Shown here piece after piece: positions 17,924-47,853 of a stretch of 64,000 bases of DNA. Position 1 is the stretch's first letter. The number at the start of each line of letters is the position of its first letter. The stretch comes from Promethearchaeota archaeon Loki_b31 (GTDB taxonomy: Archaea > Asgardarchaeota > Lokiarchaeia > Sigyniarchaeales > SOKP01): the NCBI GenBank assembly GCA_005222975.1, contig NJBI01000011.1, positions 1 to 64,000 on the forward strand, read 5' to 3'. Made by a program: the position numbers and the translations under genes. The notes beneath the pieces were generated by a model. It ran no database searches. It was given only the letters and a program-made list of their open reading frames with translations, and was not told the origin of the DNA.

Positions 17924-19015
17924 ATGAACATTCTTTTTATTGAAAATTTTAAACTTTTTAAAAAATTAACGAGGATTAAGACGATTGGTGGGATTGAAAC
18001 AAATACAAATGATATAATACATTATCTTCGTCAAAAAGGACATAAAATCTGGGTATTAAATAAAGAGGTAAAACCCAAATGGGCGGAGAAAGGAGAAGTC
18101 GACATCATTGCTGCTTCCACATTCGATCCAATTACATTTTTTCAAATTAGTAAGTATAAGAAAAAATACAAACAAAGAGCTGCTGTAGTAATTCATGGTC
18201 ATACAACGGTTGAAGATTTAGTAGGAAATTTTGTACCTGATAAAACCATTTTTAACAAAATTTTTAAATTCTGGCTAAAACTTTTGTATGGTCAAGCACA
18301 CTTATTAATTACACCAAGTGAATTTTCTAAGGAGTGTTTAATAAATATTCAAACTTCTATGACTTATCCTATACATGTTGTAAGCAATGGAATTCGTATT
18401 GAAGAATTTAAGGAAAATAAAAAATATAGAGTCAATTTTAGAAGATTTCTCTTTCAACAATATGATATACCTGAAGAAGCAGTAGTTATTATAAATGTAG
18501 GTTTAAGCTGGAAGAAGAAGGGTGTTAGGACCTTTGGAGAGATCGCTGAGAAATTTCCAGAATATTATTTTGTTTGGGTTGGACCAATAAATAAAAACCC
18601 TGAGATTGATGAGGTAATAAAACTAGATAATGTGATATTTACAGGATTTTATAATGATATTAGAGAGGCATATTATGGTGCTGATTTATTTTTAAATACA
18701 TCTTGGGTGGAAAATCAAGGAATTCCTTTAATAGAGGCAGCAATTTGCAAATTACCTGTTGTTGCTAGAGATTTATCCGCATTTGATTGGATTGTTCATG
18801 AATATTCCTGTTATAAAGCTAAAAATATGGCAGAATTTGTTGATGGAATTAGCAAGATCGTCTCAAATTCAAATTTTAGAAAAAAAATCGTTGAAAACGC
18901 TTGTGATGATGCAATGGAATTACATGATTTTGATAAAATTGGTGAGAAAATCGAGAAATTATATATTAAGGCAATTAAAGTAAAAAAAATATGGGATCAT
19001 AAACGAAATAAATAA
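17924..19015 (+). CDS. Glycosyltransferase family 4
   Basis: HGHTTVED, VSNGI, SWVENQGIPLIEAA. Confidence 0.85.
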   Translation: MNILFIENFKLFKKLTRIKTIGGIETNTNDIIHYLRQKGHKIWVLNKEVKPKWAEKGEVDIIAASTFDPITFFQISKYKKKYKQRAAVVIHGHTTVEDLVGNFVPDKTIFNKIFKFWLKLLYGQAHLLITPSEFSKECLINIQTSMTYPIHVVSNGIRIEEFKENKKYRVNFRRFLFQQYDIPEEAVVIINVGLSWKKKGVRTFGEIAEKFPEYYFVWVGPINKNPEIDEVIKLDNVIFTGFYNDIREAYYGADLFLNTSWVENQGIPLIEAAICKLPVVARDLSAFDWIVHEYSCYKAKNMAEFVDGISKIVSNSNFRKKIVENACDDAMELHDFDKIGEKIEKLYIKAIKVKKIWDHKRNK

Positions 19016-42173: not shown

Positions 42174-43184
42174 ATGAATTCGGCCAACAATTCTCCTGGT
42201 TCAGACGAATATGACTATGCGAAATCTTTAATATTCAAAAAACAAAAGGTTAAATTATATGAGATTAAACACTTTCTTTTTGATTTTGGAGGAGTATTAA
42301 TAGAAAAGACATTTGTATTAAATAATTTATTTGCTTTTATTGAGCATGATCTAAATATTAAAATTCCATCAAAAGAAATTGATCCATATCTCAAAAAATT
42401 AAGACGGAGGTTATCGTCTGGAAGGATTTCTGCTAGAACATTTTTAGAATCGATATTTGAGATGTATTACATCCCTTTCCAAAAAAAAAATGAAGCGTTA
42501 CCGCCAAAAAAAGTTAATATCAAGTATTACTTGGAGCTTTGGTTTAATCTTTATACTCAAGTTACACACATATCGTCTGATATGGCAGAAATTGTTGAGC
42601 GTCTACATTTAGCGGGGTATACAGTAAGTCTTTTGTCAAATACTTATGACATTCATGCGAAATCAAATGAATTAAGGGGTTTTTACGATAATTTTGATAA
42701 CGTGTTTTTATCGAACGAAATTGGATTAATTAAACCCGATATGGATAAATACATATATGTATTAAAAAAATTAGGTTCCAAACCAAAAAGATGTATTTTT
42801 ATTGACGATAAAATAAGTAATCTTATTCCTGCGCATGAATTAGGAATAATCGTTATAAAATTCGAATCTTTCGAAAAGTTTAAACAGCAATTAAACGATA
42901 TAGGCATAAAAGAAATAAGCCCAAATTTAAGGAAAGAAATCAAGAAAAAGTATGAATCGTATAAAAAAAAGAAAAAGGAATACAACAAAATAAAAAGGGA
43001 ATACAAGAAGGCTAAAAATAAGTATCTAAAAAAAAGATATAGAAAGAAAAAATCGTTAAAGAGAAGGCTTGAATTCCAAAAAAAGCGAGCAGAATACCAA
43101 AAGAAAAAGATTGAATATCAAAATGAAAGGGATAAGAAAAAGGAAGAACTGATATCTAAAGTTAAATTAAATTTTTATAGGTAA
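42174..43184 (+). CDS. HAD-superfamily phosphatase with Lys-rich C-terminal tail
   Basis: FDFGGVL, LLSNT, KPD, FIDD; last ~85 aa extremely K-rich. Confidence 0.85.
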   Translation: MNSANNSPGSDEYDYAKSLIFKKQKVKLYEIKHFLFDFGGVLIEKTFVLNNLFAFIEHDLNIKIPSKEIDPYLKKLRRRLSSGRISARTFLESIFEMYYIPFQKKNEALPPKKVNIKYYLELWFNLYTQVTHISSDMAEIVERLHLAGYTVSLLSNTYDIHAKSNELRGFYDNFDNVFLSNEIGLIKPDMDKYIYVLKKLGSKPKRCIFIDDKISNLIPAHELGIIVIKFESFEKFKQQLNDIGIKEISPNLRKEIKKKYESYKKKKKEYNKIKREYKKAKNKYLKKRYRKKKSLKRRLEFQKKRAEYQKKKIEYQNERDKKKEELISKVKLNFYR

Positions 43185-43191
43185 TTAACCA

Positions 43192-44322
43192 TTATTTATT
43201 TTCTTCTGTTTCGTTATCGCGTTCTTTATTGTAAGCTTCTACCTTTTCCATAACGGATTCTGCGGGTGTTGCTGCGGGAATTGGCATTTTTTCGTAAATT
43301 TCAATAAACTTTACATTCTCTATATCTTCGCTCATATGAGTCTGAAGGTCCATGGCAAGACCAAATTTTAAGTAAGTGAGATTTTGGAACAGAAACATTT
43401 TAGGGATTGTAATTTCTAGAGTTTTATCCTCCGCATGATTTATAATAAATTCAGCAGCACTCTCTTTAGGAATCCCCTTTGTAATCATGAAATATTCAAT
43501 TTTTTCGTTAAAACCTTCGATTTTATCGATAATCTCTAGGTTGTAGTCGATTGATTGACCTGCCAAAGGATGGTTGTAGTCGATAATAACTTTTCCTTGC
43601 ATAATATTAGAAACTACACCTCTTTGACCTTTTTTATTGGTAAAATCTTGACCATATTCGGGGTTCTTGCCTTCATTTAATTTTCTAAATTTAGCGATGC
43701 CAATTCTTTCGATTTTTTGAGGGTCTCTTTTACCAAATGCTTTAGTAGGGGGTATTCTTACAGATTTTTTTTCAAAGTAATTCATTTCTTTAATTGTATC
43801 AGTTAATCCCTCGTTTACAAATCCTGGCTTTCCAGCAATAATGAATTCTGGGGTGTAATAACCTTGTTTACCCTTTTCTTCTTCGTAAATCCCAGCTTTT
43901 CTTGCGTCCTCCTCGGTAGAAACTCTAAAAACTTTACCTTTTTGGGTTCTTGCTGTCATTTTTAAGAGTACAAAATCACCTTCGTCAACTTTTTTTCCTT
44001 GTAATTTTGCCTTCTTTTCTTCTAATTTCTTAGCTTCTTCTTGAATTCTTTTTTCTTCCTCTGCTTCTGCTTCCACTTCTGCGGAGATTTTATCGTTTTC
44101 TACTGTACTACCATCTGAGGTAGCCTTATTTGAGTACCCTAACAAATCTTTTGCGTTACTTACGAATTTTTCAGCAGTAGCCTTTCCAATACCTTTAAGT
44201 TGTGTTAACTCATCCACATCCGCATTTGCTAATTTCTCAACTGTATCAATCCCAGCTTCTATTAGAACTTCCTGTTTTTTGCCAACACCTTTCACATCTT
44301 CTAAATTCATTCCTAAAACCAT
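43192..44322 (-). CDS. Long-type archaeal FKBP/SlyD PPIase with N-terminal helix-hairpin-helix domain
   Basis: VKGVG..LKGIG HhH; IPPTKAFGKRD, IDYNHPLAG. Confidence 0.88.
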   Translation of the reverse strand: MVLGMNLEDVKGVGKKQEVLIEAGIDTVEKLANADVDELTQLKGIGKATAEKFVSNAKDLLGYSNKATSDGSTVENDKISAEVEAEAEEEKRIQEEAKKLEEKKAKLQGKKVDEGDFVLLKMTARTQKGKVFRVSTEEDARKAGIYEEEKGKQGYYTPEFIIAGKPGFVNEGLTDTIKEMNYFEKKSVRIPPTKAFGKRDPQKIERIGIAKFRKLNEGKNPEYGQDFTNKKGQRGVVSNIMQGKVIIDYNHPLAGQSIDYNLEIIDKIEGFNEKIEYFMITKGIPKESAAEFIINHAEDKTLEITIPKMFLFQNLTYLKFGLAMDLQTHMSEDIENVKFIEIYEKMPIPAATPAESVMEKVEAYNKERDNETEENK

Positions 44323-44392
44323 TAAATAATATTAGTTAAGTTATAACCAATTAGATTTTAAAATTTTTCATTACTTATTACTTTTTCTAAAT

Positions 44393-44515
44393 TTAAGATA
44401 CTGGCTCATACAAAATTCCTAATTCGTCAGCATAATTCTTAACATCGTGCATTTCTTCTATTGAAGGTCTTCTGTTTATTTCTTTATATTTATAAACTAA
44501 ATATTCGGGGTGATA
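44393..44515 (-). pseudogene. Orphan duplicate 3' end of pflX (40 codons plus stop)
   Basis: Translates YHPEYLVYKYKEINRRPSIEEMHDVKNYADELGILYEPVS*, 23/40 identical to the PflX C-terminus. Confidence 0.9.
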
Positions 44516-44676
44516 AGAGATCAGAAAAAATTAAGTTTTTCTTTTTATAGAACCATTAGTATTAATATTCCTTATTTAAACAATAATTTTTGTTTAAATA
44601 CATGTGTTCTAATAATATAGTATAGTGTATATACATATTTTTAGCCAAGAGGGCAGAAAGTAGAGATTTTGATATC

Positions 44677-45948
44677 TTGAAGGAAACAGGAGTGTATTTG
44701 ATTAATGGGACAATTAAAGAAAAAATTGCTGATGCTGCAGCTCTTTTCAAAGCAATAAGGAAACAGATTTCATTGTATCCAAATCCTTGTTATTGTATCA
44801 GAAAAGCCATTGAAAATGCTGAGTTCTTCAGTTTGTTGCTTGGTTTAAAACCTTATTATTTTACATATAAAAGTCAAAGAAGTCAAAGAGGTAAGCAATT
44901 AGGTTTAGACCTTTTAATAAGAATTGAAACAATTCTGATGAAATCATTTGATTATTGGAGACAGAAAGAATCCGACTCAAAATTAATTGACAAGATTACT
45001 TTCATAAGGGATAATATTAGAAAGATCATTGAAAGTTATAAAGCTTCTAACAAACTTAAGTTATATGCTCATGGTTCAAATGGTGTTTTAGAACAACACC
45101 CTGATCTAAAACTAGATTATTTTAAAAATATTGACTCTCTAGAAAAAGCGTATTGGCTTGGTTGTTTGTTTGCTGAAGCTTATATTACTATTAAGAAACT
45201 TAAAAGTGGTAAAAAATATTATCAATTAGGAGTTGGATGTGTACAAGATGATTTCATTTTATTAGAAAGGTTTGCAGATGCTCTTGGCTTAGATATTGTA
45301 AATAATGAACCCCGTAAAGAAAAATATATTACTTCTAAAGGAGAAGTGCATCTATTTAGACGAATTACATTAATTAATAATTATTTTTGTAAAAATCTCA
45401 TATCTCATGGATTTATTGTGGGAAAAAAAAAATCAAAAAACATAAGATTACCAAAATTTAAAATTCGAGAACTATTACTAGTGTTTCTACTTGGTTATTA
45501 TGATGGAGATGGAACAATGGGGAGATCTAGAATAACTTCTAGTAGTGAGAAGTTTCTTGAAGATATTTTAAATTCGCCATTCTTAAATATACACATTTCT
45601 AATTCCAATTCCATCCAATATGATCCAGTTAAAAAATCATACATAATCACAGGAGATAGAATAAGTATAGGAGCAGACTTAATGAGAGAAATAGTTAAAA
45701 ATTATAAGAATAGCCTACCAAGAAAGCGAGCTTATTGGGAGAATTGGGTTGATAACCGTACAAATAAACCTTCTCCAAAAATGGATTTATTAAGAGAAAA
45801 ACTACCTGAAGAGGAACTAATAAACCTTATGAAAAAATTTACTCTAAAACAAATTGCATATATGTACGGAGTTGGGTATAGAACTTTAATGGATTATAAA
45901 GGCAAATTAAATATATATTTAAGAGACAGGTCTCCAGAAGATTCCTAA
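44677..45948 (+). CDS. Free-standing double-motif LAGLIDADG homing endonuclease with C-terminal HTH
   Basis: KAYWLGCLFAEAYI and FLLGYYDGDGT motifs; TLKQIAYMYGVGYRTL HTH. Confidence 0.85.
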   Translation: MKETGVYLINGTIKEKIADAAALFKAIRKQISLYPNPCYCIRKAIENAEFFSLLLGLKPYYFTYKSQRSQRGKQLGLDLLIRIETILMKSFDYWRQKESDSKLIDKITFIRDNIRKIIESYKASNKLKLYAHGSNGVLEQHPDLKLDYFKNIDSLEKAYWLGCLFAEAYITIKKLKSGKKYYQLGVGCVQDDFILLERFADALGLDIVNNEPRKEKYITSKGEVHLFRRITLINNYFCKNLISHGFIVGKKKSKNIRLPKFKIRELLLVFLLGYYDGDGTMGRSRITSSSEKFLEDILNSPFLNIHISNSNSIQYDPVKKSYIITGDRISIGADLMREIVKNYKNSLPRKRAYWENWVDNRTNKPSPKMDLLREKLPEEELINLMKKFTLKQIAYMYGVGYRTLMDYKGKLNIYLRDRSPEDS

Positions 45949-47031
45949 TTTATCCGCATAATTTCTAACTTCTTGAATTTCCTGTGAATTAGGTCTACGA
46001 TTTATTTCAGGATAGTGAAAAGCTTTGTACTCTGGATGAAACTGCTGCATTAGGTTCATAACCGCTTTTGGAAGTTCTTTAGCTACATAATCTAATATTG
46101 GCTTAGAACAGCATTCCACATGATTAGGCATGATTAAGTGTCGAATTATTATTTCCCCACTTCCTAAATCGTGAATTCTTTTAAGATTACGAGTTATTAC
46201 ATCGTAATAACCTTTTATTCCAGAGTATTTTTCTCCACATTCGTTGTTGCCGTACTTAAAATCAGGTAACCAAAAATCTATAAAATCTATGATGAGAGAC
46301 AACGATTCGTTAGTAAGATAAAAGTTTGAATTCCAGAGTTGCGTAATGTTTGATGTTTGATGTTGAAAACTACCTACAATAGTATGGAGGTTTGGTATAG
46401 GATCACCTCCTACATAATTGATATTTATAGCACCTTTCCCAACTAGTTTGTCTGCAAGAGCGGCTAATTGTAAAACATCAACTTTTTGAGCAATATCTTC
46501 AATATTTCTCCGACCTTTCCAAGCTTGAGAAATATCGTAATTTTGACAAAAGACGCAACCAAAATTACAACCTTGGAAAAAGATAGTACCGCTTGGTATC
46601 AGCGGAGATTCTTCGCCCATATGTAAAAAAGCAGAGGAAACAAACGAATCTTTCGATATCAGACAAAATCCTTTTTCACCATCTATACGGTTAACCTTAC
46701 ATTGCCTTTCGCAAAAAATGCAACTCTCAAGATATTTATTTGCTAATTCTTCAGCTAGAGTAATATAACTTTTAGAGGCTATGCTACGATTTTTAAGATC
46801 TTCAGTTGGATTTTTTAACAACTCATTAAATTCTACAGATTTTTTCCTTAACAAATCCTCTAAATGTTCTATAGTATCTTTTGTATCGTATTCACATTTT
46901 ATACTTTTTGCGATAATATACCTTGCAACTTCCTTATTGTCAATGATCCCTCGATATCTAGGAAATCTTTTGAGCAGTTCTTCGTTTTTCCACACCGAAA
47001 TTGAGTCTGGTCGAAGAATTCTAAAAACCAT
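45919..47031 (-). CDS. pflX: Radical SAM protein, PflX family
   Basis: CIFCERQCKVNR, HMGEE, GCNFGCVFCQNYDIS, RHLIMPNH. Confidence 0.88.
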   Translation of the reverse strand: MVFRILRPDSISVWKNEELLKRFPRYRGIIDNKEVARYIIAKSIKCEYDTKDTIEHLEDLLRKKSVEFNELLKNPTEDLKNRSIASKSYITLAEELANKYLESCIFCERQCKVNRIDGEKGFCLISKDSFVSSAFLHMGEESPLIPSGTIFFQGCNFGCVFCQNYDISQAWKGRRNIEDIAQKVDVLQLAALADKLVGKGAININYVGGDPIPNLHTIVGSFQHQTSNITQLWNSNFYLTNESLSLIIDFIDFWLPDFKYGNNECGEKYSGIKGYYDVITRNLKRIHDLGSGEIIIRHLIMPNHVECCSKPILDYVAKELPKAVMNLMQQFHPEYKAFHYPEINRRPNSQEIQEVRNYADKLGIFWRPVS

Positions 47032-47124
47032 AATTAATATATTAGAAACATTTTTTAATATGATTTTCGCTAAATTTATTTTTAAATGTAAGAATGAGAA
47101 ATGGACGAGGATAGAGTTAAAGAA

Positions 47125-47853
47125 TTAGGTATCAAATGCTAACCATTTGATGATGTTTGAAAGAAATTTAATATTATCACCAGCATCTAATCCAAATTCA
47201 TCTTCAATAAGCCAATCTGATGAACCTATAGTTACACATCTCCCGTTAAAAAACTCGGATACAACACAAATAGGCACCAGCCCAATTATTTCTATATCGT
47301 CGTCAATTGTATATTTAAATTCTGCTTTTTCGGAAGTAACGATTAAATCCTCAACATCCTCTTCCGTTAGTGTAAAGAAAGTACAGTTTGGCAGGACTAC
47401 TTCAGTAATTCCTTCAGTTATCGGATGGTTAAATAAGAGGTTTATTAGTACATTTTGTTTGTTGACTAAAAAATGTGAGTGTGATTCTTGAATTACGCCG
47501 TTCCAAAATCGTCGCACTCCCGTCATTTTATACAACACCCGAATAGAACCTAGCTTCATAGCAACATCATTATCGCCCCCACCTCCACTAGTTAAAAAAA
47601 GGCTCCCGCCACCCCCAACATACCGCTTAATTGCTAGTAGTTCGTCCTTAGTAAATTTATCTGCCTTTCCGTCTTTAGTATGCTGAATATGTCCCATAAA
47701 TAGAATGTCATAATCTTCAAGTGTATCAAAATCTATAGGTCCTTCATTCTTGTCAATATAATCGACTTCTAATTCGACTTCGCTTAAAGAAAAATCGGGA
47801 AATTCCTCTATCTTTTCTTTGTGAGATAAATCGACTATTATACTATATGGCAT
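47125..47853 (-). CDS. Class I glutamine-amidotransferase-like fold protein (DUF4350/GIFT-like)
   Basis: IIVDLSHKE, FTKDELLAIKRYVGGGGSL, HPITEGI, DNIKFLSNIIKWL. Confidence 0.6.
   Translation of the reverse strand: MPYSIIVDLSHKEKIEEFPDFSLSEVELEVDYIDKNEGPIDFDTLEDYDILFMGHIQHTKDGKADKFTKDELLAIKRYVGGGGSLFLTSGGGGDNDVAMKLGSIRVLYKMTGVRRFWNGVIQESHSHFLVNKQNVLINLLFNHPITEGITEVVLPNCTFFTLTEEDVEDLIVTSEKAEFKYTIDDDIEIIGLVPICVVSEFFNGRCVTIGSSDWLIEDEFGLDAGDNIKFLSNIIKWLAFDT

Follow-up and report, generated by a model that had tools for sequence, protein, structure and literature searches.

A putative homing-type cassette with a LAGLIDADG endonuclease and a replacement gene end at a pflX-like gene of Lokiarchaeia

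Described systems and the pflX locus

The closest known system to the element described here is the mobile endonuclease open reading frame (mORF) of fungal mitochondria, which has been reported in atp6 of Allomyces macrogynus and in atp6, atp9, cox2 and nad3 of Glomus sp. (PMC3630166). We studied a comparable arrangement in Promethearchaeota archaeon Loki_b31 (GCA_005222975.1, a 3.5-Mb assembly of 99 contigs with an estimated contamination of 5.98%), in which an open reading frame (ORF) for a LAGLIDADG endonuclease is situated between a pflX-like radical-SAM gene and a second copy of the last 40 codons of that gene. The locus is within the first 64,000 positions of contig NJBI01000011.1; this whole stretch is referred to as the window, and coordinates are window positions. 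In mORFs and in the pflX cassette alike, an endonuclease ORF (mostly LAGLIDADG in the mORFs) is located at the 3' part of a conserved gene, a foreign C-terminus completes that gene and the native one is displaced downstream (PMC3630166). The native piece is 91–98% identical to its nearest relative in mORFs (PMC3630166) and 95–97% in pflX, and the inserted piece is 64–81% identical in mORFs (PMC3630166) and 65–68% in pflX. Biochemical work is reported to have shown that the endonuclease drives the mobility of the Allomyces element (PMC3630166), whereas mobility of the pflX cassette is proposed here from its sequence. Unlike the mORFs, which are in an organelle genome, the pflX cassette is in an archaeal chromosome, and its site shows two orientations and a variable space resembling a cargo slot.

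Three other groups of systems share some of these properties. In phage intronless homing (T4 seg/mob and mobE, PMC2790892), a free-standing endonuclease lies beside its presumed target gene, as at pflX, flanks are co-converted and immunity comes from sequence difference and not from interruption of the site, as may be the case for pflX. In the phage cases the flanking DNA is replaced with no duplicated gene end, whereas at pflX an apparent co-conversion tract of 39 nt accompanies a duplicated gene end of 123 nt; in addition, the phage enzymes are mostly GIY-YIG or HNH and spread in phage co-infection, unlike the pflX cassette. The LAGLIDADG enzymes of archaeal introns and inteins (I-DmoI, I-Tsp061I and the PI-type intein nucleases) have the same fold as the window ORF, and they likewise enter conserved genes and pass through a homing cycle in which they invade, decay and are lost. 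By contrast with these, pflX is kept whole by a spare end and not by a splicing element, and the endonuclease is not encoded in frame inside pflX. Finally, in the "fractured genes" with split inteins (PMC2677866), a free-standing endonuclease similarly invades a prokaryotic gene with an accompanying device that preserves function; however, those genes are split and their proteins rejoined by split inteins, while pflX is unsplit and has a part replaced.

We found no description in the open-access literature of gene-end-replacing endonuclease cassettes in archaeal or bacterial chromosomes. Based on the evidence below, we consider it highly probable that the pflX locus carries a homing-type mobile cassette of this kind, made up of the foreign last 40 codons of pflX and a free-standing, two-motif LAGLIDADG gene.

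Origin of the two pflX tails and nature of the endonuclease

The first-pass annotation of the window had pointed out a diverged, same-strand second copy of the last 40 pflX codons, and its limits proved exact. The pflX tail at 45919-46041 and the copy at 44393-44515 are identical at 23 of 40 residues and at 67% of nucleotides. When the entire 3.5-Mb genome was searched with PflX, the fragment was recovered at E=2e-10, and tblastx between the two endonuclease flanks gave E=5e-15; the repeat is far beyond chance. Homology of the fragment to pflX stops abruptly at 44515, with no pflX similarity in the preceding 45 nt, and the fragment has no start codon and an in-frame stop five codons upstream.

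To establish which tail belongs to the host, PflX was searched in 41 related genomes, and each locus was mapped for PflX and its two tails, for the endonuclease and for the FKBP protein. The three closest PflX orthologues (G021, G017 and G009; 88–92% amino acid identity) are endonuclease-free and have YEPVS-type tails that end 70 bp upstream of the FKBP gene, as had been predicted for empty alleles; none of the three has the WRPVS tail of the window gene. Their tails are 95–97% identical at the nucleotide level to the fragment 44393-44515 and only 65–68% identical to the tail in use, which in turn is 76–83% identical to tails of G008, G019, G020, L071 and L072. Of the two copies, the fragment is native to the host and the one in use is foreign, which bears out the earlier proposal that an endonuclease unit had replaced the 3' end of pflX. 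Among the 15 endonuclease-free alleles examined, 12 have the 70-bp spacer accompanied by a YEPVS-type tail. The FKBP gene is thus a conserved downstream neighbor of pflX, and it would form the right homology arm of the proposed cassette.

A maximum-likelihood tree of the 120-nt tails resolved two clades with 98/98 support. The first comprises the native YEPVS-type tails, and the fragments of the window and of L111, an independent metagenome contig, nest in it among G021, G009 and G017. The second holds all tails that adjoin an endonuclease gene, including the window tail in use. A separate tree of the gene body (nt 1-940) conflicts with the tail tree in grouping the window with L111, G021 and G017.

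The boundary of the foreign sequence could be placed closely. Compared in 60-nt windows, the first ~951 of the 1113 nt of pflX are 92–100% identical to G021/G009, and identity is then ~0.6 as far as the stop. The base-by-base comparison with G021/G009/G017 places the drop from >0.9 to ~0.6 at nt 946-957 (window ~46076-46086), and divergence from L111 begins at the same place. The foreign tract (nt ~952-1113) starts ~39 nt upstream of the duplication point, which is between nt 990 and 991 (window 46042 and 46041), and this stretch beyond the repeat looks like a co-conversion tract beside a repaired break. The switch point is the end of a KPILDYVAKE-coding block, a natural place for crossover because it is conserved in all alleles. 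The 370-residue pflX ORF is collinear with all orthologues, the foreign tail completing the gene in frame.

The antisense LAGLIDADG gene that had been noted over the pflX stop region was also confirmed, as an ORF of 423 codons that is convergent with pflX and overlaps its 3' end by 30 nt (45919-45948). The AlphaFold2 model of the ORF, built on 67 homologues, had a mean predicted local distance difference test score (pLDDT) of 90.6. It has the pseudo-symmetric LAGLIDADG fold, in which the alpha-beta-beta-alpha-beta-beta-alpha unit occurs twice, with an extra helical N-terminal region and a C-terminal bundle resembling a helix-turn-helix. The PDB matches listed by Foldseek (E<=0.001) were the LAGLIDADG proteins bI3 maturase, I-DmoI, I-AniI, I-SceI and I-Tsp061I, all with a probability of 1.0 and with target-normalized template modeling (TM) scores of up to 0.58. 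A profile search of PDB sequences with the endonuclease identified no relative, only the fold comparison giving matches. Against Pfam LAGLIDADG_3 (cut-off 22.5 bits) the window protein scored 18.7 bits and the database protein P0001 22.4, whereas the orthologue P0009 passed with 23.9. Motif 1 (WLGCLFAEA) keeps E167 and motif 2 (LLGYYDGDG) keeps D276 and D278; D276, D278 and G279 are invariant across the 67 homologues, and E167 across 15 close ones. The ORF is thus predicted to be a single-chain, two-motif LAGLIDADG endonuclease with both catalytic acidic residues.

The features of the locus are listed in Table 1. The name PflX rests on general similarity to activase-like radical-SAM enzymes: no NCBIfam equivalog was found for the protein, the best match being AmmeMemoRadiSam at 40 bits against a cut-off of 220. 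The gene upstream of pflX (47125-47853, minus strand), which is its neighbor in relatives too, matches the Pfam IFT52 GIFT domain with E=2.7e-7, exceeding the gathering score; in eukaryotes this domain belongs to a protein of intraflagellar transport. On the other side of the locus, an ORF at 42174-43184 (plus strand) has a long, repetitive C-terminal tail rich in lysine and arginine (KKKYESYKKKKKEYNKIKREYKKAKNKY...), and it adjoins the FKBP gene also in L072, L111, L112 and L191.

Table 1. Coordinates of the features of the pflX-FKBP region in the Loki_b31 window.
Feature	Position	Strand	Remarks
pflX-like radical-SAM gene	45919-47031	-	370 aa; Pfam Radical_SAM E=1.7e-11
Native part of pflX, nt 1 to ~945	46087-47031	-	92-100% nucleotide identity to G021/G009 in 60-nt windows
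Crossover zone and apparent co-conversion tract, pflX nt ~946-990	46042-46086	-	Foreign replacement, unduplicated
Replacement tail in use, pflX codons 331-370 and stop, in frame	45919-46041	-	Foreign
Two-motif LAGLIDADG endonuclease ORF, 423 aa from internal TTG, truncated copy	44677-45948	+	Antisense to pflX
Remnant of original GTG start of endonuclease gene, 12-codon ORF ending TAG	44625-44663	+	
Upstream region of endonuclease gene	44539-44624	+	87% identity to L111 counterpart
Right cassette junction, 23 nt common to L111; ~870-bp indel site	44516-44538	-	
Displaced native pflX tail, codons 331-370 and stop, pseudogene fragment	44393-44515	-	
FKBP26-type peptidyl-prolyl isomerase gene with helix-hairpin-helix (HhH) domain	43192-44322	-	Pfam HHH_5, FKBP_C, FKBP26_C

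Recurrence, decay and exchange at the pflX-FKBP site

No close orthologue of the endonuclease was identified among the 42 species representatives of the genus, in which the best proteins were 37–40% identical. Scans of GTDB genomes and JGI metagenomes identified nine further contigs with orthologous endonucleases of 56–86% identity (L071, L072 and L111-L117), and the source names of the homologues read Promethearchaeota or Lokiarchaeota, in line with the initial impression of an Asgard-like chromosome. Eight of the nine contigs have pflX, a pflX tail or the FKBP gene beside the endonuclease, and L113 has only a displaced tail. The inserts were of two types. In type A (L071, L111, L112 and L115) the endonuclease is antisense to and convergent with pflX, as in the window; in type B (L072, L113, L114, L117 and the more distant L116) it is a separate ORF on the pflX strand. 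Four type B genes (L072, L113, L114 and L117) are truncated after residue ~354-365 and stop ~20 bp short of the old tail. Displaced tails occur in seven of the nine contigs; they start at codon 331 in six, and the one in L112 has an eroded 5' end; the fragment in L117 carries an in-frame stop codon. A recognizable old tail was not found in L071, and the L115 contig ends before the region. At the junction, the ATG-GGN-CAR of naive alleles is ATG-CAG-CAG or ATG-TCT-CAG in five of six occupied ones, a candidate for a change that confers resistance to cutting.

The endonuclease gene is the sole gene common to all inserts, the other contents varying between methyltransferase, CDC48_N, DUF4145, Ser/Thr kinase and unknown genes. 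The variable genes occupy the space between endonuclease and old tail or the pflX-FKBP spacer (L111:2502-3227, L071:541-1059, L072:4508-5188, L113:1267-2517, L191:1754-3304 and L192:3475-4266) and encode Methyltransf_11, CDC48_N, DUF4145, Ser/Thr kinase, beta-helix/NosD and Schlafen AlbA_2 proteins. This space looks like a cargo slot or an insertion hot spot. An Rfam scan identified no family at E<=1 in the cassette (a sub-threshold snoRNA match was elsewhere in 43000-47500), and the cassette has no significant terminal repeats. With no intron or other RNA family detected and no such repeats, there is no sign of another vehicle for the insert. A 24-nt inverted repeat (44534-44557 and 45780-45803) was considered as the cause of the flip in orientation and rejected, since 20 of 24 matches is about what resampled sequence yields (mean best 19.4).

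The endonuclease gene of the window had been described as free-standing. It is indeed a separate ORF, but not a whole gene: its closest database proteins are longer at the N-terminus (P0001 and P0002, 95–96% identical, 568 residues; P0003, 88%, 558 residues), so that the window copy is a 5'-truncated remnant of a gene for 558-568 residues. Residues 1-11 of P0001 are encoded at 44625-44657 in another frame and residues 132-568 continue from 44635, while the original GTG start now opens a 12-codon ORF closed by TAG. By comparison with L111, which encodes P0003, ~382 bp are missing at ~44650-44656, where collinearity breaks; the gap is frameshifting and flanked by microhomology. This ~382-bp deletion took the original start and the N-terminal ~125 codons, and the enzyme, having lost these, may be inactive. 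In addition, the substitution W163C in motif 1 is unique to the window copy.

At ~44531-44538 the window also lacks ~870 bp that are present in L111, and this extra L111 DNA holds a Methyltransf_11 gene of 241 codons that is divergent from the endonuclease gene. The mobile unit had been estimated at ~1.5 kb. This holds for the window, where it spans 1526 bp; however, the unit is a shrunken derivative of the ~2.8-kb cassette seen in L111, and the foreign tract begins ~39 nt further upstream than had been supposed. A palindromic TATA-like element with perfect spacing (TATTTAAACAATAA/TTTTTGTTTAAATA) is present at 44573-44600, 25-50 nt upstream of the original GTG, and is presumed to be the endonuclease promoter. 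The equivalent region of L111 sits between the divergent endonuclease and methyltransferase genes, and the palindrome may be a bidirectional TATA element.

The host of L111 is a close relative of Loki_b31, with PflX 91.6% and FKBP 95.5% identical. From 44538 to 43001 the window is 96.7% identical to L111, and both have the same junction, in which LFLIS is followed directly by YHPEY. Synonymous divergence (dS) between the two is 0.091 for the endonuclease core, 0.085 for the pflX body and 0.093 for the FKBP gene, while for the pflX body of the window and G021 it is 0.155. Based on the similar dS values and the identical junction, the simplest reading is a single insertion that postdates the divergence from G021/G009/G017 and predates that from L111, followed by vertical descent. 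The ratio of non-synonymous to synonymous divergence (dN/dS) between window and L111 is 0.49 for the endonuclease core, ~0.2 for host genes and 0.20 for the new tails, whereas the old fragments differ at one synonymous and five non-synonymous positions. These values agree with a new tail that is functional, an old one that is dead and relaxed selection on the endonuclease gene, and the new tail is under purifying selection.

One block does not follow this pattern. The region 46085-45780, which takes in the new tail and the final ~55 codons of the endonuclease, is just 56–82% identical between window and L111, with a dS of 0.6-1.4 compared to 0.09 on both sides, while outside it the cassettes are 93–100% identical. 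The block spans the helix-turn-helix region of the endonuclease, and its high divergence indicates that one genome or the other acquired it by exchange with a different cassette lineage.

Some endonuclease-free alleles may be scars. In G019, G010, G013 and G018 the pflX tail is of the cassette type (W[RK]PVS) and the spacer is 195-240 bp instead of 70 bp, and these alleles may have lost a cassette. The G019 spacer encodes LFYKPVS and a stop (L023:1377-1400, minus strand) at exactly the position expected for the end of a native tail, immediately ahead of the conserved promoter-proximal block, although this was a post hoc find; a nucleotide-level search for old-tail remnants in the long spacers of the four genomes gave nothing above shuffled sequence. 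In G005 the cassette-type tail is cut after ...TSQEMQEV and fused to other sequence, and in G020 a beta-helix gene is within the spacer. The locus is therefore represented by full copies (L111, L071 and L112), decaying copies (the window and the C-terminally truncated type B genes) and candidate scars. In pflX itself, nt 691-840 of G017 (L016) have an identity of 0.68-0.75 to the window over 150 nt, where G021 and G009 exceed 0.93. In G008 (L020), pflX nt 931-1050 belong to an allele with the naive 70-bp spacer, yet the first half of its tail is 88–90% identical to the foreign tail of the window. These comparisons indicate that pflX alleles of G017 and G008 are mosaic also outside the cassette.

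A proposed mechanism, its alternatives and meaning

We propose that the endonuclease would cut an endonuclease-free pflX near codon 330/331, between Q and [YF][HR]P, and that the break would be repaired from an occupied allele. The left arm, the pflX body, would pair in the conserved KPILDYVAKE-coding block, giving rise to the ~39-nt co-conversion tract, and the right arm would pair with the displaced old tail of the donor and the FKBP gene. Repair would bring in the replacement tail and the endonuclease gene with pflX remaining intact, and the recipient's own tail would end up further downstream, as a dead fragment. Many positions distinguish the new tail from the target, and these differences would presumably make the occupied allele immune.

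Duplicated gene ends are not confined to pflX. When tblastx was applied to the flanks of the seven copies of the family in the genome, they were detected at C18 (the pflX locus), C99 and C5. On contig C99, 10253-10345 and 11632-11724 are diverged 3' ends of a neighboring gene around a LAGLIDADG paralogue (ASVDEAYEIY..GPVGL and a stop), and on contig C5 the same is true of 14894-15028 and 18178-18312 (KS[ND]DK.FPV.S.IYSRS...). Among paralogue loci of other genomes and metagenomes, 18 of 95 (including L120, L137, L089, L180, L149/L150, L189 and L142/L145/L093/L096) have same-strand coding repeats flanking the endonuclease gene, compared to 0/95 of the reversed controls. Some of these repeats are 5' gene ends, beginning with M and in one copy having a stop at codon 2, and one is 132 residues of a DPPY-type DNA methyltransferase. 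The replacement strategy may thus extend to gene starts.

Several observations weigh against homing by gene-end replacement, or limit it. Divergence of the endonuclease between hosts (70–75% amino acid identity) is about that of PflX, so that vertical descent with loss could account for most of the history that can be seen, and no near-identical donor of the cassette was found. Unlike mORFs, which are in phase and co-transcribed with the host gene, the pflX endonuclease is a separate ORF with its own upstream region and is often antisense. The partly cassette-like tail beside a 70-bp spacer in G008 shows that tails can be exchanged without an endonuclease gene being left behind. Finally, based on its 5' truncation, W163C and a dN/dS more than that of host genes, the window copy is probably no longer mobile.

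A more ambitious version of the proposal, which we regard as doubtful, is that the cassettes constitute a modular delivery platform for Asgard chromosomes. The replacement tail and the C-terminal helix-turn-helix of the endonuclease would be swapped as a unit, linking immunity to target recognition, and a second slot would bring cargo to this one conserved locus, the genes differing between lineages. The tail/helix-turn-helix module of this version derives from the elevated dS of block 46085-45780, and the contents of the second slot would be the methyltransferase, kinase, DUF4145 and CDC48-N genes between the endonuclease gene and the old tail.

A passive arrival of the insert is, in our estimation, improbable. 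The tail and endonuclease gene could have come by ordinary homologous or illegitimate recombination with DNA of another species, or the spacer could be a hot spot, with the LAGLIDADG gene being inert or domesticated. That cleavage of pflX is something we infer, that genes with no relation to the endonuclease occur in the spacer (methyltransferase, CDC48_N, DUF4145, kinase, beta-helix and Schlafen-AlbA_2), that pflX is mosaic elsewhere (G017 nt 691-840 and the G008 tail) and that the window endonuclease gene is truncated would all suit such a history. However, it does not explain an insertion point fixed at one codon for inserts of either orientation and in distantly related hosts, an endonuclease that is the only constant gene of the inserts, a co-conversion tract adjoining the junction, or the flank repeats at 18 of 95 paralogous loci and none of the controls.

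A tandem duplication of the pflX 3' end in situ, followed by divergence and an unrelated insertion of an endonuclease between the copies, would account for two same-strand copies of one segment 1.5 kb apart, and an independent tandem paralogue had been named at the outset as a possible source of the fragment. The two-clade tail tree and the conflicting body tree exclude both, as the downstream copy matches the single tail of relatives at 95–97% identity while the upstream copy is in another well-supported clade. In addition, the foreign sequence reaches 39 nt past the repeat, and in close relatives a single tail is followed by a 70-bp spacer. We therefore give a duplication in situ very little credence. 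Least credible of all is a chimera of assembly or binning that joined reads of two species at the pflX 3' end, as the number of contigs and the estimated contamination might suggest, since the same architecture and junction are found in the independent contig L111, and in eight more contigs from other assemblies, and the sequences on either side of the insert match one and the same set of close relatives.

If homing by gene-end replacement is the correct explanation, almost every stage of the homing cycle can be seen at a single locus in natural populations of Lokiarchaeia, with naive, full and decaying alleles, the last in two orientations, and probable scars. The cassette would provide a specific route, open to experimental test, for the entry of foreign coding sequence and cargo genes into conserved Asgard genes without an integrase. 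It would also explain mosaic gene ends of a kind that could mislead phylogenies of Asgard proteins, and the locus would offer natural triplets of enzyme, target and immune variant for studies of LAGLIDADG specificity.

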